From IMG/VR virus record IMGVR_UViG_3300046507_000526, positions 70,193 through 134,192 of that record: a stretch of DNA of 64,000 nt. One strand, 5' to 3'. Each line of letters opens with the position of its first letter. Position 1 is the first letter of the stretch. This document shows, piece by piece, positions 12,472 through 61,699 of this stretch. The translations under genes were made by a program, and so were the position numbers. Under the pieces are notes generated by a model. The model ran no database searches, was not told the DNA's origin, and saw nothing but the letters and a program-made list of their open reading frames with translations. The DNA comes from a virus (lineage: Duplodnaviria; Heunggongvirae; Uroviricota; Caudoviricetes).

Positions 12472-13773
12472 ATGGCCGTACTTACGATAGGTTCTTCGAA
12501 CCCTAAATTTTCCTGGATCATTTCCAAAAACCCTGCAACTATCCGGGAGAAAGGTGAGCCGTACAAAAAAGAGATCCGTCAAGGCAATGCATATGGCTGG
12601 TTTCTCACCAATGACCAGTCTTTTCGTCTCTGGTTTCGGGATAATCCTTTGACGTGTTCGTTTGCAGAAGGAATCAATGCGGAATTCGAGTATCTTGACC
12701 GCACTCGTTACGCTTCTCCTTACTTGCCGATTTCGTTGATCACGAACTGTCTGGCAACTGCATTCAAACAATCCCAAGAGGAAGATGAAGAAAAACCGTG
12801 GTCTGCATTTCTCACGACGACGGTAGAAATTCGAAGTGCTAGCATGCTTCGTCATCTCACAGAACACTTTAACGGGGCATTTGGATTTGACAAAGGGTAT
12901 AGCTTCACTGCTCAGAAATTAGCGGGCAACGCCTACGACGTCCATATTCAAGGCCCGAGCGTTCACAAGATGCTCAACGCTGCAATGGTTATTTTCCTGA
13001 TGTTCTGTGTTTCGACAAAAGGCATCTACATCAACCTCAAGGGGGATATCGTTGAGAAATACATTGCTGCAATTAACCGCATCAATGCTCCTTATTTTAT
13101 CCGGTATCTCTTTAAACGGAACGTGTTCTCAAATCGTGACACATTTCTTAAGAACAAATCGCTGCTTGATACGAACGAGATTTCGCTCTGGCACGGTGAC
13201 ACCCTTGCTCAGCGTAAAGAAGCTATCTTCCCCCACCTGGAAGGCGGAGCAATGCTTGTTGACATTGGGTGCGGTGAACTCAATTACACGCTCCCGCTCA
13301 GTTCGAAATATGAACAGGTCCTTGCGTTTGAAGCGGATGACGAACTCCGTGAAAACATGCTCGGAAAACTCAAAGGCCGAGAAGTCGAAAACGTTGTTCT
13401 CCGAGATGCTGCAACTCCCGAATCGATTGATGAGTGTTCCTCGCTCCTTAGCGGAGCAGACGTGCTCATCACAGAAGTTCTGGAGCACATTCCTCTTAAA
13501 GATGCAAGAGAGCTTGTTAATTCCGTTCTGAAAACTGAATTTAACAAGTTGGTTATCACGGTTCCGAACAAGGCTTTCAACGTGAACTATCTGATGGGAG
13601 AAGATGAGTTCCGTCACGATGATCACAAGTGGGAAATGACTCACGACGAATTTGAAGATTGGATTCTTCGTTCGAAATTCCCTGAATGGACTGAAGTTGA
13701 AATTAGAGGTATTGGCGATTCTGTCAACGGCACATTCACTTCCACGATGGTTGTTTTCTCCAAGAACAAATAA
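12472..13773 (+). CDS. hen1: Hen1-like RNA 3'-terminal 2'-O-methyltransferase (bacterial Hen1 architecture)
   Basis: C-terminal class I SAM MTase motifs MLVDIGCGELNY, VLAFEADDEL, DVLITEVLEHIP; about 430 aa with N-terminal non-MTase domain as in bacterial Hen1; directly upstream of pnkp. Confidence 0.7.
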   Translation: MAVLTIGSSNPKFSWIISKNPATIREKGEPYKKEIRQGNAYGWFLTNDQSFRLWFRDNPLTCSFAEGINAEFEYLDRTRYASPYLPISLITNCLATAFKQSQEEDEEKPWSAFLTTTVEIRSASMLRHLTEHFNGAFGFDKGYSFTAQKLAGNAYDVHIQGPSVHKMLNAAMVIFLMFCVSTKGIYINLKGDIVEKYIAAINRINAPYFIRYLFKRNVFSNRDTFLKNKSLLDTNEISLWHGDTLAQRKEAIFPHLEGGAMLVDIGCGELNYTLPLSSKYEQVLAFEADDELRENMLGKLKGREVENVVLRDAATPESIDECSSLLSGADVLITEVLEHIPLKDARELVNSVLKTEFNKLVITVPNKAFNVNYLMGEDEFRHDDHKWEMTHDEFEDWILRSKFPEWTEVEIRGIGDSVNGTFTSTMVVFSKNK

Positions 13774-13782
13774 GGACTTACC

Positions 13783-16203
13783 ATGAAAATTCAAACCAAG
13801 CTTCACACCGTGTTTATCCTGGTTGGCCCTTCTATGTGCGGCAAGTCGACGTTTTCCCTTGAGTTGCAGCACGCTCTAGGAGAACAGATGCGTAAAGCTG
13901 GACTGGGCGGTTCGTGTTCGATTCCCGTCATCAGTTCCGATGCGGAGCGAGAAAGTCTTTACGGCTACAAGAATCTCCATCGTTACGCACCTTTGATGAT
14001 GGAAGCCTCAGCTTCGGCCTTCGAAGTCCTTATGGCCAGGTACAAGGCAGCGATCTCGTTCCCGATCAATAGCGAATTCGTGATCATCGACACGACTGGC
14101 ATGAACGATACGTTCCGCAAGCAAATTCGTGAACTGGCCGAGGAAAAGGAATATCGTACTGAGTTGGTTACTTTCGAGTACTCCAACTATCAGTATTGGT
14201 CGGAATCCAATGCAGAAGAAAAGGTCATCGTCGAGTCGAGTGCCAAGCGATTCAAGCAGAGCGTCCTCCCGAATCTGGGGCGTAAAGATCACGACGGCTG
14301 TATCCGTGTGCGTGAACGTGACAAGAATTTCTGGCGTGACCTCGAAGTTGAGATTGAAGATCTGCAAAAGTACGCAGCTACTCAGTTGTATCTCAATAAG
14401 GACATGCAGATCAATATCATCGGAGATGTGCACGAACATGTCGAAGCGCTGGAAGAACTTCTTGTCAAACTCCCTGCTGGGAGCATCAACGTTATGGTGG
14501 GAGATTACATTGATAAGGGCAATGACACAGCAAATGCCATTGCTGCAGCTCGTAGGTTCCACGCTTCTGGTGGTATTATTGTTCACGGCAATCACGAGTC
14601 GTATGCTGTGAAACGTATCAAGGGAGAAATTAAGAACCCTGATCTGGAAATGGAAGCAAAGTACATGACTTCACTCAATGTACTGCTGAAAGATCCTGCG
14701 CTTGCAGCTGAGCTTGTAGATCTCTTCGACCTTTGTTCTGTACCTTTCCTCAAAATTCACGGTCATAACGTTCGTACCCTTTACGTTACCCATGCTCCTT
14801 GCGAGCAGAAATATCTGGGTAAGATGAGCCCTGCAGCACTTAAGGCTCAACGTAACCTGTACGGGGATCGTAAAGAAGACTACCGGAAGGCATATGACTT
14901 TATCTTTAAAGAAGCAGTTGGCAATTTCCCTTTGCATGTGTTTGGTCATGTTGCCCATAATGCTTCAAAGCTCGAATATCGGAACAAGATTTTTATCGAT
15001 ACCGGTGCTGTGTATGGCAATGCTCTTTCTGCTTTGTGCTATAAGGGAAACCGCTATTGGATCGAGTCTGTTAAGGCGACTGAAAAAGTAACGGTACATA
15101 AGGAACTTCAAAACTTCCTTACGCAACCTATTGCAGCTCCGGAAAAGCCCTTCAGCATCTACGACTATAAGTTGTCGCCTGATGATATGAAGTTCTTGAA
15201 GCGTACAATCGCAAACCGCGTTCAGTACATTTCCGGAACTATGGCACCAGCTCCGTCGACCAGCACTGAGATTGAAAGTCTGAAGGCTGGACTGGACTAT
15301 TTCCGTAACAAAGGCACGACGAAGGTAATTCTGGAACCGAAGTACATGGGTTCACGTTGCCAGATGTATCTGTTCCGTGGCCAACGCGAGAAATGCTTCC
15401 TGGTTTCCCGCAATGGTTTCAAGATTCGAATGAATGAAAAGCTTGACGCAATGCTTGACGCCGAGCTTGCGAAGTATGAAGCTTTGAGTCTTGATTTCTG
15501 GAATGAGTCAATGATTCTAGACGGCGAGCTTCTTCCTTGGACTACTCTCGGCGCTTCCTTGGTCGAAGAGCAATTCAAGGCGTATGAAGAGCTTGTACGT
15601 TACGAACTGGAAACTCTTGCAGGGGATGCGGAATTTGTGAAGCTTAACTTCAAGCAAAAGCCTGATTTATTAGCACGTCTGGCCGATCTGGCAACGTTCA
15701 AGAAAACCCTTGCAATCTACGGAGCAGAAGCCGATCCTTTCTATAAACCTTTTGCAATTCTGAAAATTGATAGCGAGGCCATGGGGAATAAATTTGAGGT
15801 TGCAGATTCGTTCGATACTCTCAACGAAGACGAATGTCGTGTCCTGCGTTTGGATAACGAATTCACTGACCAAACAGCGCAAGAATTCTTCGAAGCGTTG
15901 ACCGTAGATCGTAAAATGGAAGGCGTCGTCATTAAGCCTCTCGATGGTCCGGAAGATGTAGCACCGTACATGAAGGTTCGGAATGAGAATTATCTGACAC
16001 TTGTGTATGGCTACGACTATAAGAACCGTTACGAAGCTCTTTGCCGCCAGAAGAAGGTTGGTGGTAAACTACGTGTCTCCATTAAGGAGCATGATCTCGC
16101 AATGGCAATGCTTAATGTAGACAACGGCCCTGCCATGACTGAATTGATTGTGAAAATGATCTCACAACTCAATGAAGAAAAGGCTTTGGATCCTCGTCTG
16201 TAA
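13783..16203 (+). CDS. pnkp: bacterial-type polynucleotide kinase-phosphatase with C-terminal ligase-like adenylyltransferase domain (Pnkp)
   Basis: P-loop kinase VGPSMCGKST; calcineurin-like phosphoesterase GDVHEH...GDYIDKG...GNHES; C-terminal nucleotidyltransferase motif EPKYMGSRCQ; three-domain order matches bacterial Pnkp. Confidence 0.85.
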   Translation: MKIQTKLHTVFILVGPSMCGKSTFSLELQHALGEQMRKAGLGGSCSIPVISSDAERESLYGYKNLHRYAPLMMEASASAFEVLMARYKAAISFPINSEFVIIDTTGMNDTFRKQIRELAEEKEYRTELVTFEYSNYQYWSESNAEEKVIVESSAKRFKQSVLPNLGRKDHDGCIRVRERDKNFWRDLEVEIEDLQKYAATQLYLNKDMQINIIGDVHEHVEALEELLVKLPAGSINVMVGDYIDKGNDTANAIAAARRFHASGGIIVHGNHESYAVKRIKGEIKNPDLEMEAKYMTSLNVLLKDPALAAELVDLFDLCSVPFLKIHGHNVRTLYVTHAPCEQKYLGKMSPAALKAQRNLYGDRKEDYRKAYDFIFKEAVGNFPLHVFGHVAHNASKLEYRNKIFIDTGAVYGNALSALCYKGNRYWIESVKATEKVTVHKELQNFLTQPIAAPEKPFSIYDYKLSPDDMKFLKRTIANRVQYISGTMAPAPSTSTEIESLKAGLDYFRNKGTTKVILEPKYMGSRCQMYLFRGQREKCFLVSRNGFKIRMNEKLDAMLDAELAKYEALSLDFWNESMILDGELLPWTTLGASLVEEQFKAYEELVRYELETLAGDAEFVKLNFKQKPDLLARLADLATFKKTLAIYGAEADPFYKPFAILKIDSEAMGNKFEVADSFDTLNEDECRVLRLDNEFTDQTAQEFFEALTVDRKMEGVVIKPLDGPEDVAPYMKVRNENYLTLVYGYDYKNRYEALCRQKKVGGKLRVSIKEHDLAMAMLNVDNGPAMTELIVKMISQLNEEKALDPRL

Positions 16204-16232: not shown

Positions 16233-16570
16233 TAAGTTGGAATAACGTATGCATCACTTGCATTTTTTGTTAGTGTAAGGGGGGAGTAACTCTCTCCGTA
16301 TACGCTCTGGCTCCGATCTGTGAAAACAGATCTACGCCAGGGAAACGGGCTCCGCCCACGAGGTTATTCCAGTAACCAAATCGCCTGAAATCTAGGCGAG
16401 CTTCGCAAGTATCTATTCGCTTTAGCTTTACAAAGCCGAAGGCCAGCGAGTTACTTTCTGGTGATAAACTTCGGGATCACAATAGTACGGCTGCGCCGTC
16501 CTCGACCCGAGATACCCTGACGGGTGCGTGTTGCGAAGCACTTAACGTAACAACAAGGAGAAATAGGTTT

Positions 16571-30840: not shown

Positions 30841-30916
30841 GGGAACATAGCTCAATTGGCAGAGTAGCGGTCTTCAAAACCGTTGGTTTCGGGTTCGAGT
30901 CCCGATGTTCTCACCA
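30841..30916 (+). tRNA. tRNA with anticodon UCA (UGA reader; opal-suppressor / tRNA-Trp-like), CCA encoded
   Basis: canonical 76-nt cloverleaf: acceptor GGGAACA/TGTTCTC, D-arm GCTCAATTGGCAGAGT, anticodon stem GCGGT/ACCGT, loop CTTCAAA, T-arm TCGGGTTCGAGTCCCGA; resembles tRNA-Trp with C34 to U. Confidence 0.75.
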
Positions 30917-31620: not shown

Positions 31621-31688
31621 TAAACAATAGCTCAATCGGTAGAGCACACATCCATGTGAAGCTGGGGGTTCGAGTCCCCCTTGTTTTA
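31621..31688 (+). ncRNA. short tRNA-like gene (68 nt) with truncated anticodon arm; possible tRNA pseudogene or minimal tRNA
   Basis: acceptor TAAACAA/TTGTTTT (U1-U72 mismatch), D-arm GCTCAATCGGTAGAGC, T-arm GGGGGTTCGAGTCCCCC, but only 12 nt (CACATCCATGTG) where the 17-nt anticodon arm should be. Confidence 0.35.
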
Positions 31689-42840: not shown

Positions 42841-43015
42841 GCAACAAAACGACTGGGCTCACGAGGCCTAGTCTGTTTTGGAAAGGTCTTGAAGGCCTTT
42901 TCAAAGCAGTGTATAATTGCTTCTCTTTGGGGTTAAAGCTTTAAGGTGAAGCAACGGACTTTTAATCCGTAGAATAGGGGTCAGTACCCTGTAGCCCTAC
43001 CAATAATTTCTAATA

Positions 43016-58031: not shown

Positions 58032-58763
58032 TTGACGAACGAGATTTCTACGAAGACTCTCAGGAAAGAAGCACCGGAGCTTGATACAGAGAAAGTGCGT
58101 TTGATTTTCCTGGATATCGATGGAGTCGTAATCTCTGCTAAGACCGCGCTTCTTGCAGGTGGATGGGGTAGACTTTTTGTAGACTATTCCATGTACGACG
58201 GAGGATGGTTCAATTCTTCCGAGAAGAAAGTGCTCTGCCCGCCGTATGTGCGCAACCTGGAGTCGGTTGATAAGCATGCAGTTGGGCTTATCAATCAACT
58301 TTGTAAGGTGACAAATGCACACATTGTTCTTTCATCAACGTGGAGGCTTGGAATAGATGTCTACCAGATTCGGCAAGTTCTCGAAGCGATGGGAATCGAC
58401 CCATACCGTGTCATTGGTAAAACGCACAGCGGTGGATCTAATCGCGGGGAGGAGATATTCCATTTCTTACAGGGAATTGGCGAGAAGCGGTCGCATCAGG
58501 ATCCAGACTTTTTTGTATCTCAAGGGCGTCTCCTCGAATCACTTAGCAAAGTTGTGCTCGAAGTCGAAAGTTATACCATTATCGACGATGTGCAAGCGTT
58601 CTTACCAGATCAACAGGCGCATTTTGTACAGACAGATGAAACCGAAGGATTTGGCCTTACAGATTGTCTACTAGCAGGGTATATTCTTACGGGCAAGGAC
58701 TTCGGTATCCCTCAGCTTCAGAGCGGAGAGGACTATGAGGGCAAACTGATTCTATCGACATGA
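58032..58763 (+). CDS. HAD-like phosphatase (DxDGV)
   Basis: LIFLDIDGVVISAKT motif. Confidence 0.5.
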   Translation: MTNEISTKTLRKEAPELDTEKVRLIFLDIDGVVISAKTALLAGGWGRLFVDYSMYDGGWFNSSEKKVLCPPYVRNLESVDKHAVGLINQLCKVTNAHIVLSSTWRLGIDVYQIRQVLEAMGIDPYRVIGKTHSGGSNRGEEIFHFLQGIGEKRSHQDPDFFVSQGRLLESLSKVVLEVESYTIIDDVQAFLPDQQAHFVQTDETEGFGLTDCLLAGYILTGKDFGIPQLQSGEDYEGKLILST

Positions 58764-58981: not shown

Positions 58982-59317
58982 GTGAGGGAAGTCATAGCCG
59001 CGTTGACTTTCCTCATTTCTATTATTAGCGGCTTTTGTTTAGGTTCTACAAAGATGTCTACGATTTCTCTTCAAGCAGCAGCACGTACTTTTGTTCGTAA
59101 CACTACGAATCTCCGTAAGGAAAGCGATATCTCCATCGCTGATATGGCAGCAGCAACCAAGCTGTCGATTTCGACTCTCAAGCGTATTGAAAAATATGCA
59201 CGACTCGGCGCACTCGCGGGCAATTATCGTCCGACTCTGGCTACCGTCGTTAAGATTGCAAACGTTGCACAAGTAACGCCTGATGAACTTCTGCAACTTG
59301 AGTTGGAAGTTGCTTAA
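58982..59317 (+). CDS. helix-turn-helix (XRE-like) DNA-binding protein
   Basis: MAAATKLSISTLKRIEKY and ATVVKIANVAQVTPDEL HTH pattern; immediately upstream of ncRNA array. Confidence 0.5.
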   Translation: MREVIAALTFLISIISGFCLGSTKMSTISLQAAARTFVRNTTNLRKESDISIADMAAATKLSISTLKRIEKYARLGALAGNYRPTLATVVKIANVAQVTPDELLQLELEVA

Positions 59318-60085
59318 GCTTCGCTAAAGCAGTACAATTAAGGCGTAGGTTACGCTGCGCCTTTCTGTTAATCTCGGTACAACAGAGGCGATCATGATGA
59401 ACGAAGTTATTAGCGTTGCAGAGTATGAAGAAGGGTTTGCCCTCATCGAAGATACGCAGGGCAAGTATATGGTTACAAGAGACAGTCCCGAGATCACTGA
59501 AATCCAGTTTCCTCGGTGTTTTTTGACAGACCGTGATCGCCAGGCCCTTTTAACGTAAAGAACAATATGCACCGGAAGTAAGGTCCGTTTCTCCTGCCCC
59601 GAATGAGCAACCTGGGTTAACCTTACAGAATTGCTTCCATGACTTAGTATTTTAGTAATGGCAACATTGCTAGAGGAATTGTAACAATCCTCTAACGTTG
59701 TCTCGGCTGCGCCGAGATGAGGTGATGAGATGTCGTCGACCGAGACGCCGACGTCCTTGAGCTGGGATCCGTATAGGTACCATCCCAGTAGCTCGTGAAC
59801 CGAGCATGAGTCCGTCATGGACAACCAGAGTTTACCGCTCTGGTAGCAGAAGTTTGAAGTGCTCAAGCTGACCTTGTTAACCTTTACCCTTAAAGGTAGA
59901 GCGAAACTAAAGGACAGAGGGTATCTGTAACAGTACTCTACGCTTCCTTCGCACACCGCGAAAAGCAAAACCATTACCCAGCTGGGGCTGGGTAAAACTG
60001 ATTCTGCTCTTGGCCAGAACCTGGTTTATAGTTAGTTAACTTTAGATGCTAACCAGGCGTATTCTTAGCAGAATGTGTTCAAACA

Positions 60086-60175
60086 TTGAGAGCCGACGTG
60101 ATTGGGTTATCTCCAAAAATTACTCCACTCCAAATTTTGCTTTCAACAATTTCTGTATTAATGGTATAATAGTTT
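60086..60175 (+). ncRNA. Y-RNA-like repeat unit 0 (GAGCCG 60090, GGTTATCT 60105)
   Basis: conserved 5' box GAGCCG-N9-GGTTATCT. Confidence 0.4.
60162..60170 (+). promoter_or_regulatory. TGGTATAAT promoter motif about 10 nt upstream of unit 1 GAGCCG box
   Basis: places a likely transcription start at the conserved box. Confidence 0.4.
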
Positions 60176-60295
60176 TAGTGAGCCGTCTTATCTGGGTTAT
60201 CTCAATTGGTGAACTCTACCCCAGGTTACTCTTTAGTTCACTCTCCGCTTTAATCCTGAAGTGTCTTAGTGCCACAAGACATTTTGGAATTAAAG
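60176..60295 (+). ncRNA. Y-RNA-like repeat unit 1
   Basis: GAGCCG 60180, GGTTATCTCAATTGGTGAACTC 60195; recalled from memory, vertebrate hY1 reads GGUCCGA...GUGAGUUAUCUCAAUUGAUUGUUCAC. Confidence 0.45.
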
Positions 60296-60296
60296 T

Positions 60297-60371
60297 TCAC
60301 GGACCGCTCGAATCTCGGTTATCTATTGCTAAGAAACCTCCGAGTTTCATTTATTTGTCCGTTCCAGTTTT
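60297..60371 (+). ncRNA. Y-RNA-like repeat unit 2
   Basis: GGACCG 60301, GGTTATCT 60317. Confidence 0.4.
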
Positions 60372-60519
60372 AGTTGAACCGTAGAAATAGGTTATCAAGC
60401 CCAAATCGCCATTCACAGGTTCGAATCCTGTAACCCGTCGGTAGTTAGACGTCGGGTTTAGCCAAGCTGGCAAGGCAGCGATTCCGAAGTCTATTTCGAT
60501 CCTTTGTTCAACACCCAGT
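60372..60519 (+). ncRNA. Y-RNA-like repeat unit 3 with tRNA-like module
   Basis: GAACCG 60376, GGTTATCA 60390; T-arm ACAGGTTCGAATCCTGT (60415-60431), acceptor-like hairpin AACCCG.../...CGGGTT (60432-60458), TA, D-arm GCCAAGCTGGCAAGGC (60461-60476). Confidence 0.5.
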
Positions 60520-60682
60520 TTCATCGAGCCGATAGCTAAGGGTTATCTACTATGGAAGTTAAACGACGGTTACTCTGCATTACTCCGAAAGGAGAGAGTT
60601 TCAAGAGGGTTAACAAACTAGCTGTACCTCTGGTCTTAGGTTGAAGACTATCTCCCTTGCACTCCTTGCTCGTTTCAAGTTT
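60520..60682 (+). ncRNA. Y-RNA-like repeat unit 4
   Basis: GAGCCG 60524, GGTTATCT 60540. Confidence 0.4.
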
Positions 60683-60841
60683 CGCTGAGCCGTTAGTATT
60701 GCGTTACCTTCCTGTTAAGAACGAGTTTCAGGTTCGAACCCTGACGGCAGGGCTAAGAGTATATAGTGCTTTTAGTCCTGCTGTAGTTAAATCGGTATAA
60801 CACGCAAATTTCGCAGTACACCTTTTGTTCAGCATTAAATT
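60683..60841 (+). ncRNA. Y-RNA-like repeat unit 5 with tRNA-like module
   Basis: GAGCCG 60687; T-arm TCAGGTTCGAACCCTGA (60728-60744), 3' acceptor strand CGGCAGG (60745-60751) pairs 7/7 with CCTGCTG (60777-60783) across a 25-nt loop, then TA and D-arm GTTAAATCGGTATAAC. Confidence 0.5.
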
Positions 60842-60911
60842 TGTGAGCCGTTCAGGTTTGGATTATCCTTTTAAGATTTCCTCCAGATCAATTCTTTTGC
60901 TCACTTCATCT
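60842..60911 (+). ncRNA. Y-RNA-like repeat unit 6
   Basis: GAGCCG 60845, GGATTATC variant. Confidence 0.35.
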
Positions 60912-61141
60912 TTACGGACCGTTAGTATTAGGTTATCTACTTATGGGAAGTCGGGGTCGGGGGTTCGAATCCCTCCAGTGGCAATGCTACTGTAGCTCAG
61001 TGGTAGAGCACGAAAAATCTCCTAGTACGCCTTTTGTCCGTTTCAATTTTTTCACCTAGACGGTCATCTTGGAAAATGGGTCGCAACCTAATCTGAGAGA
61101 TTCGAGACAAACCCTATAGAAGGGCGGTGAAAGTTCAAAAT
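60912..61141 (+). ncRNA. Y-RNA-like repeat unit 7 with tRNA-like module
   Basis: GGACCG 60916, GGTTATCT 60931; T-arm GGGGGTTCGAATCCCTC (60959-60975), CAGTGGC (60976-60982) pairs 7/7 with GCTACTG (60986-60992) across AAT loop, then TA and D-arm GCTCAGTGGTAGAGC (60995-61009). Confidence 0.5.
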
Positions 61142-61300
61142 ATAGAGCCGCTAGAATTAGGTTACCGCTCCATTACTGCGGACGCCAGAAGGTCTGGATT
61201 ATCATTGGTTCGATTCCAATCGTCTATCCCTAGTTCATCTTTTGCTCTATTCCTAGATTACCTTTCGTATACTCAAGTTGCATGTTGAGAACATAGAGCA
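61142..61300 (+). ncRNA. Y-RNA-like repeat unit 8 (3' boundary uncertain)
   Basis: GAGCCG 61146, GGTTACCG variant; T-arm ATTGGTTCGATTCCAAT (61204-61220). Confidence 0.35.
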
Positions 61301-61641
61301 ACTCTATGGTTATTTCTCCACGGGATCCGCTCCACTACGGGTTACGGGCTTTGCCCTTCACCCTACGTTGCGCTACTCCCGAGGTCTTCTTTCGAGATCC
61401 CAGAAGGACCTCGATGAGGAAAGGTAGCTTTATCCATGACTTACGTATTATTGTTCTTCGAACATAGTGTAGAGTAACTCTACAGTTTATGCTTCGACTC
61501 TTCGTCCTACGGACTATCGAGTCGAGGAGCTGGGATGTTCTTCCCAGGTACCCTGGTGAAGAGCTGCAGGGCTCCAGCACCTCCAACCCAGCATGAGGTA
61601 AGTCGTTTTCAAATCCTGCCACCAAGCAGGGATTGCGTTTA

Positions 61642-61677
61642 AAGGTCTGTTAACTTCGGTTTCAGACCTTTCTTTTT
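61642..61677 (+). terminator. rho-independent terminator closing the ncRNA array
   Basis: AAGGTCTG...CAGACCTT hairpin plus TCTTTTTT, 22 nt before rsr start. Confidence 0.65.
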
Positions 61678-61699
61678 TAGTCCTTTAAGGAGCCGTAAC

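Follow-up and report, generated by a model that had tools for sequence, protein, structure and literature searches.

What lies in the long, seemingly non-coding stretch that precedes the gene for a Ro60 protein (rsr) in a virus of the Caudoviricetes, and could it supply that protein with RNA partners of its own? Ro60 is a human autoantigen and a conserved protein of RNA quality control, and Y RNAs are its regulators. The DNA considered here (64,000 nucleotides (nt) of the IMG/VR record IMGVR_UViG_3300046507_000526, positions 70,193 to 134,192; hereafter 'the window', with position 1 as its first letter) carries rsr near its 3' end, and a first-pass annotation had proposed that the gene is preceded by an array of Y-RNA-like units, some with tRNA-like modules, filling about 2.1 kb (59560-61690). 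The array proved shorter than that: nine Y-RNA-like units occupy 1.17 kb of the + strand (60086-61250), and both flanks hold other conserved structured RNA. Judged from sequence and predicted structure, 60086-61250 holds, with good confidence, nine paralogous Y RNA genes in tandem, which would serve the phage's own Ro60 (Rsr).

Nine units on one scaffold

The units were located with a regular expression for their conserved box (RNCCG, 7-15 nt, DTTAYC), run over both strands of the 64-kb window. It matched nine times on the + strand, with starts at 60086, 60176, 60297, 60372, 60522, 60683, 60841, 60912 and 61141, and not once in the remaining ~63 kb of that strand; the - strand gave four scattered matches. 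The number of units proposed earlier was borne out by regular expression, pairing and folds alike, and so was their irregular spacing (70-230 nt as proposed, 71-228 nt as measured from start to start of neighbouring units). Unit limits were set from the box and the complementary partner of its 5-8 nt ending at the first C of CCG; this partner, the 3' strand of stem 1, lies 50-140 nt 3' of each box, shortly ahead of the next unit, and is preceded by TT in eight of the nine units (mostly TTT or TTTT), with TTTA in u1. The T-run that had been noticed ahead of the box is indeed there, but it is made up of the preceding unit's 3' tail and the spacer. Likewise, the box, described at first as GAGCCG or GGACCG followed by 9-10 nt, is present, but with looser variants (TTGAACCG, GCGTTACC, GGATTATCC, GGTTACCG) and with spacers of 8-11 nt. 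The units read RRNCCG and then AC, TC, CT, TA, AT or TT, CCG being invariant in all nine, and their loop motif is GTTATC in u0, u1, u2, u3, u4 and u7, ATTATCC in u6 and GTTACC in u5 and u8. Four insert classes are carried by this shared scaffold: none (u0, u1, u2 and u6, which are bare stem-loops of 61-67 nt), a T/acceptor/D module, a T arm alone and a multi-hairpin module.

How do the units fold? In the minimum free energy (MFE) structures given by RNAfold, all nine form a terminal helix (stem 1), an asymmetric internal loop, a second helix (stem 2) and then the variable part, so that the pairing of the 5' box with a 3' segment, raised at the outset as a point to be checked, is found throughout. 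Stem 1 (5-8 bp) joins the 5' and 3' ends of the unit and finishes in C; it is followed on the 5' strand by a C, predicted to be unpaired, and a G that face a U-rich 3' strand, and (G)UUAYC opens the loop directly after the last pair of stem 2. The C-G opposite the U-rich strand may adopt a bulged C and a G-U pair, like the animal Ro60 site. Seven of the nine units fold better than their own shuffles (z from -1.6 to -5.3).

Covariation supports both helices. In an alignment of 23 short units from eight loci (A3, made with MAFFT), the RNAalifold consensus contains both of them; stem 1 is paired in 100% of cells, with double (compensatory) changes in four of its six pairs, and for the two stems together 94.9% of cells are paired, as against 80.3% after the columns had been shuffled and 32-51% after a slide of the partners by 1-3 columns. 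Cells with double changes number 49, versus 18.2 expected, a value reached by none of 500 shuffles. The first-pass annotation had made its proposal depend on covariation-supported structure, and both helices do covary, across paralogues as well as relatives. The short-unit stems also contain more than a dozen G-U cells and these, taken together with the strand bias of the box (see below), imply that the constraint acts on the + strand transcript.

R1, a covariance model trained on short units, among them u1, u2 and u6 of the window, recovered these three and also the untrained u7, u0 and u8, and nothing beyond these six on the + strand of the window. With its filters off, the model performed worse than by default for units bearing large inserts. 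Because R1 is weak on such inserts, u3, u4 and u5 were established by regular expression and pairing, by folding and by a second covariance model, R2, built from an alignment of nine u7-type orthologues and paralogues; R2 found the untrained u5, u3, u8 and u4 (scores in Table 1). In that alignment (alifold), the T arm covaries in three of five pairs and the D arm is conserved. The insert of u4 was folded from five orthologues (alifold), which gave 33 pairs, 12 of them with compensatory changes. Further R2 matches at 31630, 24247 and 26962 were discarded as tandem tRNA-gene junctions, known false positives of YrlA-type models, of which Chen et al. warned (PMC4201824).

Table 1. Positions of the array units and of the other features discussed (R1 and R2, covariance models; z, folding score relative to shuffled sequences; MFE in kcal/mol)
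Feature	Position	Strand	Description
u0	60086-60146	+	short unit; stem 1 TTGAGAGC/GCTTTCAA; box GAGCCG-N-GGGTTATC; 5' of promoter; R1 24.5 bits, E=5e-5, untrained
Promoter-like site	60143-60170	+	sigma-70 type; TCAACA, 16 nt, extended -10 TGGTATAAT at 60162-60170, 7 nt ahead of u1
u1	60177-60243	+	short unit; loop starts GUUAUCUCAAUUG; MFE -17.2, z=-2.0; R1 49.2 bits
Hairpin between u1 and u2	60247-60296	+	50 nt, near-perfect, -19.1 kcal/mol; flanks conserved in relatives
u2	60299-60362	+	short unit; ACGGAC/GTCCGT, CTCGG/CCGAG; z=-2.3; R1 63.7 bits
u3	60373-60512	+	YrlA-type; T arm 60415-60431, closed acceptor hairpin 60432-60458, D arm 60459-60477; R2 39.3 bits, E=5e-7
u4	60525-60672	+	conserved multi-hairpin insert, without T or D arm; R2 28.3 bits
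u5	60684-60833	+	tRNA-like; T arm 60728-60744, hairpin 60745-60783, D arm 60784-60802; MFE -54.5, z=-5.3; R2 77.7 bits, E=6e-16
u6	60843-60904	+	short unit; GTGAGC/GCTCAC, TTTGGA/TCCAGA; z=-2.6; R1 70.8 bits
u7	60914-61041	+	YrlA-type; T arm 60959-60975, 7-bp closed acceptor hairpin 60976-60992, D arm 60993-61010; R1 34.7 bits, untrained
Hairpin element between u7 and u8	61042-61141	+	100 nt; closing stem TTTTCACC/GGTGAAAG; no CCG box
u8	61142-61250	+	two small hairpins and T arm only (61204-61220); z=-2.2; R1 17.8 bits, R2 31.3 bits
Terminator-like hairpin and T-run	61641-61678	+	intrinsic-terminator-like; just before rsr ribosome-binding site (RBS) AAGGAG (61687-61692)
rsr	61700-63322	+	full-length Ro60 orthologue, 540 aa; Pfam TROVE and vWA_Ro60
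Module copy after Pnkp	16236-16373	+	behind its own TGGTATAAG; descriptor match
Module copy 1 of array flanks	59636-59821	+	descriptor match
Module copy 2 of array flanks	61258-61427	+	descriptor match
Module copy 3 of array flanks	61436-61606	+	descriptor match
Hen1	12472-13773		Hen1_N domain 4.8e-50; adjoins Pnkp
Pnkp	13783-16203		kinase, phosphatase and ligase domains
HAD_SAK_2 protein	58032-58763		domain assignment

Which of the units mimic tRNA? A T arm of the pattern GGTTCGAAYCC occurs in u3 and u7 (GGTTCGAATCC), u5 (GGTTCGAACCC) and u8 (GGTTCGATTCC), in agreement with the initial count of at least four. It had further been proposed that a closed acceptor-like hairpin, TA and a D arm come after the T arm in units 3, 5 and 7, and this holds, in that order, for u3, u5 and u7; the acceptor-like helix has 7 bp in u7, 9 bp with a mismatch in u3 and 19 bp in u5, with loops of 3-9 nt. 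A permuted, anticodon-less tRNA mimic is what defines YrlA (PMC4201824). Its arm order (T, closed acceptor, D) is found in u3, u5 and u7 only; u0, u1, u2, u4 and u6 lack any tRNA-like arm. The YrlA-type architecture that had been suggested is further supported by the Rfam YrlA model (RF02553), which matches u7 (60930-61043) with 44.9 bits and E=3.5e-8, the gathering score being 69. Other Rfam searches gave nothing: the YrlA model on the remaining eight units, all models at gathering thresholds over the region, the short units alone in E-value mode at E<=10, and the Y_RNA model at E<=10 on 59300-61750 or 60080-60370. Of the two cmsearch tests proposed, that with YrlA thus succeeded for u7, but that with Y_RNA failed. 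In cultured phages, too, the Ro-nearest YrlA matches of Gordonia phages reach just 42-47 bits (Cashline, 42.2 bits, just upstream of Ro; Sixama, 46.8 bits, ~1.3 kb downstream of Ro), and Streptomyces phage Beuffert has a partial YrlA match of 34 bits, ~2.3 kb upstream of Ro inside a tRNA cluster. R1 found no match at the Ro loci of three cultured actinophages, the short-unit type being absent there.

Could the region simply be a functionless graveyard of degenerate or rearranged tRNA genes, the outcome that the first-pass annotation had itself put up for checking? The perfect T-arm and D-arm sequences would fit, as would a weak Rfam tRNA match in u3 (60364-60439, 17 bits) and the big tRNA cluster elsewhere in the window. 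ARAGORN, however, called neither a tRNA nor a pseudogene over 59.5-61.7 kb, the arms stand in the order T, closed acceptor, D with the anticodon arm missing, and four units have no tRNA element at all; besides, bacteria and phages with an Rsr of only 42-45% identity still keep the units, with compensatory changes. Because it is contradicted by the covariation and by the permuted arm order, a graveyard can hardly be entertained any longer.

Related arrays and known Ro60-associated RNAs

Is an array of this size peculiar to one phage? When the Rsr protein was used as the query, six contigs of 30-181 kb were found in IMG/VR (76-78% identity), along with ten from metagenomes (41-79%). Boxes matched by the regular expression stand upstream of rsr in numbers of eight each (L001-L004 and L006), seven each (L005 and L007), ~10 (L010), 11 (L013), six (L011) and at least four (L012), upstream arrays being kept in relatives with Rsr 42-79% identical. 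Their composition turns over: the order of u2-like and u3-like units is swapped in L001, and u5 is missing from L001 and present in L003 and L005. u8 is 90% identical to L007 3243-3353. The element inserted between u7 and u8 is found in the window only (it is absent from L007). Copies of the usual spacer stand on either side of it, and it may represent a novel unit or one that has decayed. Other IMG/VR contigs, including some of 230-480 kb, have 2-6 boxes, with the Rsr gene confirmed as adjoining in five; the pattern scan of IMG/VR gave mostly lone, probably chance matches, and only loci confirmed by R1 or by an adjacent Rsr were kept. A distant metagenomic relative (L014) carries a HEARO RNA (Rfam RF02033, 114.6 bits) at 1058-1288, ~2.5 kb upstream of its Rsr gene.

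Bacterial genomes, one per species, were scanned with a broader alignment, after patterns from the close relatives had found none. The scan gave 80 rsr loci (L140-L219; 41-46% identity) that span Gemmatimonadota, Myxococcota, Chloroflexota, Armatimonadota, Cyanobacteria, Planctomycetota, Proteobacteria and others. Boxes counted over all of them number 242 on the rsr strand versus 27 on the opposite strand, and 143 boxes are matched by a stem 1 partner of 6 bp or longer that follows pyrimidines. Each rsr is flanked by 2-8 units, in which the box reads GGGCCG(A/G)AG-N-GGGTTAYC and the 3' strand is paired (for example, L169 2296-5483, L186 1882-2933 and L216 1730-2565); in 21 of them 3-8 units are complete, up to eight in the Anaerolineae locus L169 and seven in the Capsulimonadaceae locus L186. 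Some loci have units on both sides of rsr; in some (L169, L141 and L154) the units lie downstream of the gene. As these short units are widespread beside bacterial rsr and seem to be unannotated, the multiplicity of Y RNAs is probably much under-counted. In the literature searched, the small RNAs described number one to four per rsr locus (two in Salmonella, two in M. smegmatis, four in Deinococcus and two in phiLo) (PMC4201824, PMC12135203), and no description of an array larger than four was found there. The initial impression that so large an array is unusual for a phage is therefore only partly upheld: nine units stand at the top of the range, but related phage contigs have 4-11 and bacteria up to seven or eight, so that multiplicity is widespread rather than unique to this phage. 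The bacterial arrays lower the claim to phage uniqueness and, at the same time, widen the relevance of the finding, with nine units marking the top of a widespread distribution.

The company that the box keeps also bears on another reading of the tRNA-like units, according to which they would act independently of Rsr as decoys or competitors for host tRNA-targeting enzymes or defence nucleases, the box serving for processing or stability. The mimicry of the T, acceptor and D arms is convincing in three units, and the phage invests heavily in tRNA biology (~21 tRNAs, Hen1-Pnkp). There is, however, no anticodon arm, its place being occupied by the shared helix; the units therefore cannot mimic the target of an anticodon nuclease. 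Moreover, four to five units without a tRNA-like part still keep the box, which in phages and in many bacterial phyla accompanies rsr and lies on the rsr strand. Rsr-independent decoys thus seem very improbable.

How does the array compare with systems already described? For 254 bacteria and 22 phages (355 candidates in 276 genomes), YrlA genes have been reported on the rsr strand and no more than 4 kb from rsr (PMC4201824), and the units of the window, 450-1600 nt upstream of rsr and on its strand, fall within that ~4 kb. They share with YrlA and YrlB this position, a 5' motif of the G-N-CGAA or GGUCCGA type and the apparent excision of several RNAs from one precursor, as known for YrlA and YrlB of M. 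smegmatis, which are cut from a single one (PMC4201824). The arm arrangement of u3, u5 and u7 recalls YrlA, and u8, with its T arm only, recalls M. smegmatis YrlB. They differ in that there are nine genes here, in contrast to the one to four described, and in keeping the two strands of the Ro helix, whereas for Salmonella and M. smegmatis just the 5' strand can be recognised (PMC4201824). Where the Rfam YrlA consensus has CUA, a second helix and UUAYC are found here, and the array includes four bare ~62-nt stem-loops that Rfam does not detect, u7 itself staying under the gathering score.

By description, Deinococcus radiodurans Yrn1 and Yrn2, together with RNAs a, b and d, likewise form a small-RNA cluster upstream of rsr with T-arm-like elements, and they retain both strands of the Ro helix, as do metazoan Y RNAs. 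Yrn1 tethers Rsr to an exoribonuclease in RYPER, the Deinococcus Ro60/Y RNA/PNPase complex. Unlike the present array, that cluster comprises four RNAs rather than nine, and the tRNA-like part of Yrn1 is arranged unlike YrlA (PMC4201824). Another such system is the Thermus phage phiLo, whose Ro60 binds two upstream Yrl RNAs and host PNPase (PMC12135203). There as here a phage Ro60 has Y-like RNAs just upstream, binding having been shown in phiLo; however, phiLo has two RNAs only, and its protein is very distant from Rsr of the window (E=7e-10).

How far, then, does the resemblance to animal Y RNAs go? In animals, the Ro60 site consists of a 7-bp helix from which one C bulges out (PMC4726728), and the loops of nematode stem-bulge RNAs (sbRNAs) and vertebrate Y RNAs carry a highly conserved UUAUC at their 5' end (PMC4450293, PMC4726728). 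Metazoan Y RNAs and sbRNAs (RF00019) and the units have in common a ~7-bp terminal helix, a C that in the units is predicted to be bulged, G(A), an upper helix and UUAUC; in the window, a helix of 5-8 bp is followed by C-G in all units, which read GAGCCG or GGACCG, not GGUCCGA. The string from human Y1 that the first-pass annotation had quoted, GUUAUCUCAAUUGAUUGUUCAC, is printed in PMC6060611. With the 5' ends of human Y1 (GGCUGGUCCGAAGGUAGUGAGUUAUCUC) and Y4 (GGCUGGUCCGAUGGUAGUGGGUUAUC) taken from papers, and the full RNY4 from PMC5648034, the phage-derived box expression matches both, with a 9-nt spacer that takes in one strand of the upper stem; this is also the modal spacer length of the bacterial (171 of 242) and the phage (36 of 70) units. 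The 13-mer with which the loop of u1 starts, GUUAUCUCAAUUG, occurs in Y1 as well. Some bacterial boxes come even closer, that of locus L148, GGGCCGAAGGTTGAGGGTTATC, matching Y1 at 18 of 22 positions. Written out, Y4 is CCG-AU-[GGUAGUGGG]-UUAUC ... [CCCACUGCU]-AAAUUU-[GACUGG] and u7 is CCG-UUA-[GUAUUAGG]-UUAUC ... [CCUAGUAC]-GCCUUUU-[GUCCGU].

The likeness to the 5' region of vertebrate Y RNAs thus holds for motif, spacing and architecture, but the Rfam Y_RNA model and a sequence hidden Markov model fail to detect it: an nhmmer profile of the 23 short units, run against human Y4 and 2000 shuffles, did not report Y4, which means that the animal resemblance rests on motif, spacing and structure. 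Animal Y RNAs also differ in being single Pol III genes with an oligo-U/La tail, as opposed to tandem units with a bacterial-type promoter, and in lacking tRNA-like inserts. Bacterial Y RNAs have been called 'not homologous with' vertebrate Y RNAs (PMC4726728); Chen et al. noted the likeness between GNCGAA and GGUCCGA and the presence of both helix strands in Deinococcus, UUAUC going unmentioned (PMC4201824). Are the short units and their bacterial counterparts true homologues of animal Y RNAs and sbRNAs? This is possible, albeit doubtful, the alternative being convergence imposed by the highly conserved RNA-binding surface of Ro60. Were homology true, it would contradict the published view of non-homology (PMC4726728), and UUAUC and the upper stem would be ancient features of Ro60 ribonucleoproteins that predate eukaryotes, and not a eukaryote-specific DNA-replication motif. 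The match between phage and animal RNAs raises the question in any case: is UUAUC a signature for Ro60 rather than for DNA replication?

Predicted expression of the array and its relation to rsr

Are the units genes in their own right, or parts of the rsr messenger? The promoter-like site ahead of u1 is the sole match of its kind on the + strand of 59200-61800 and is conserved in L001, L003, L005 and L007; the transcription start predicted from it is the first base of u1. The -10 box had been placed about 10 nt ahead of the first unit, and TGGTATAAT does sit just before u1. Neighbouring units are mostly 9-12 nt apart and their spacers are alike (TCCAGTTTTA, ACCCAGTTTCAT, TTTCAAGTTTC, ATTAAATTT, TTCATCTTT; U-rich, TYCARNTTT), as expected of processing sites in a polycistronic precursor. 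A pause signal or a site for processing of the RNase III type may be provided by the hairpin that separates u1 from u2. At the far end, the terminator-like hairpin before rsr is conserved in L001, L003, L005 and L007 (alignment A6), and co-expression of the array with rsr is consequently not assured. The array had been said to sit directly upstream of a Ro60/Rsr gene at 61700; it is upstream of a full-length gene and on the same strand, but ~450 nt of other RNA and this hairpin intervene.

Some of these features would also suit a long structured leader of the rsr mRNA, in which the units are binding sites through which Rsr autoregulates read-through or translation: the units lie immediately upstream of rsr on the same strand, a single promoter-like site is present in 2.6 kb, and the conserved hairpin between the array and the rsr RBS is attenuator-like. 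However, the conserved short U-rich spacers and the closure of each unit by pairing of its own ends fit excision, some bacterial loci (L169, L141, L154) have units downstream of rsr, and the characterised Yrl precedents are processed, stable RNAs (PMC4201824). A regulatory leader is therefore considered an unlikely explanation.

The protein that the Y RNAs would serve is encoded by a complete gene. Rsr matches the structures of D. radiodurans Rsr (2nvo, 8e-109), human Ro60 (9nen, 1e-104) and Xenopus Ro60 (1yvp, 6e-99), and its segment KYKQRDGWSHRDVMRLAH is conserved relative to Xenopus KYKQRNGWSHKDLLRLSH (aligned to Xenopus residues 170-187). From the K170A/R174A and H187S mutants of the Wolin laboratory, residues in this segment are reported to be required for the binding of Y RNA and of misfolded RNA.

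If the units are Y RNA genes for Rsr, how might they work? A single precursor, started at the conserved TGGTATAAT promoter, would span u1-u8; host RNases would cut it at the conserved 9-12-nt U-rich spacers, and transcription would stop at the hairpin ahead of rsr. Each mature RNA would then bind the outer surface of Rsr via the common helix, while its own insert might gate the Rsr cavity or tether Rsr to a differing partner, on the model of Yrn1 in the Deinococcus complex; candidate partners would be PNPase, other exoribonucleases and tRNA-handling enzymes. Together with Hen1-Pnkp, the HAD_SAK_2 protein and the ~21 tRNAs, the array could make up an RNA repair and quality-control kit for the infected cell.

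Several observations weigh against this picture. u0 lies upstream of the sole recognisable promoter, a terminator-like hairpin stands between the array and rsr, and u0 (z=-0.7) and u4 (z=-0.1) fold no better than their shuffles. Significance against a curated family is reached by u7 alone, with a score under the YrlA gathering threshold. The strict GNCGAAN0-1G motif, regarded as the point of contact with Rsr, occurs in none of the nine units; its forms (GCCGAAG, GCCGAATG) are seen in more distant relatives, among the homologous units that L011-L013, L040 and L093 carry, as well as in the majority of the bacterial loci. Finally, that distinct inserts recruit distinct partners is something we infer, and infer only.

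What is new in all this? Phage and bacterial Y RNAs beside rsr and YrlA tRNA mimics are already known, the YrlA type being the only one modelled in Rfam. New here are how large the array is, the presence of four insert classes on a single scaffold, the short units that are invisible to Rfam, and the animal-type signature of helix, spacer and UUAUC. With nine RNAs that combine a common scaffold with four kinds of insert, the idea of 'one protein, many adaptor RNAs' becomes directly testable.

A second RNA module and the genomic surroundings

What fills the remainder of the stretch first assigned to the array? Both flanks (59560-60085 and 61251-61690) consist, in the relatives, of conserved blocks and variable helices, with compensatory changes and with indels that are not multiples of three. 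They contain a repeated module of 140-190 nt with its own plan: a P1 helix, GUAU, a small hairpin, a hairpin with a G-YAA-C loop (TAGAGYAACTCTA), GC-rich helices, AYGAG and the 3' strand of P1. A descriptor of this module finds four + strand copies in the window (Table 1), versus 0.13 in shuffled sequence, and a degenerate fifth copy is probably present at ~59851-60083. The sequence of P1 differs in nearly every copy or orthologue and yet pairs, six of six predicted pairs covarying. Rfam gave no match to the module and, on inspection, none of hammerhead, kink-turn and loop-E motif fits it. The module is seen in the window, L001-L007 and L010; it is absent from bacterial rsr loci and from other viral loci, and is therefore specific to this phage clade.

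The region had also been described as devoid of any credible open reading frame (ORF). Strictly, that label fails, because ORFs of 216 aa (- strand, 59324-59974) and 112 aa (+ strand, 60046-60384) exist; both run across conserved RNA helices, with indels between relatives that are not multiples of 3, and a Pfam scan of the 216-aa ORF gave no match.

As to the phage itself, the window also codes for a family A DNA polymerase, ribonucleotide reductase, primase and NAD-salvage enzymes. The closest polymerase matches are from 180-187-kb Salmonella and Vibrio phages (44-48% identity), and megablast of 59300-63400 against GenBank phages found no match, which points to a large phage of an uncultivated lineage. 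Hen1 and Pnkp constitute the bacterial Pnkp-Hen1 RNA repair pair. The presence of this pair, the HAD_SAK_2 protein and ~21 tRNAs alongside Rsr points to a phage-borne kit for RNA repair and surveillance. ARAGORN reports 20 tRNAs at 22-44 kb; Rfam tRNAs at 31621-31688 (52.4 bits) and 42929-42999 (45.6 bits) were not reported by it. The 76-nt tRNA at 30841-30916 was labelled SeC by ARAGORN (anticodon TCA). Its cloverleaf is ordinary and scores 68 bits against the general tRNA model, and it therefore looks like a UGA-reading suppressor tRNA, not tRNA-Sec, which could mean that stop codons are recoded in this phage.

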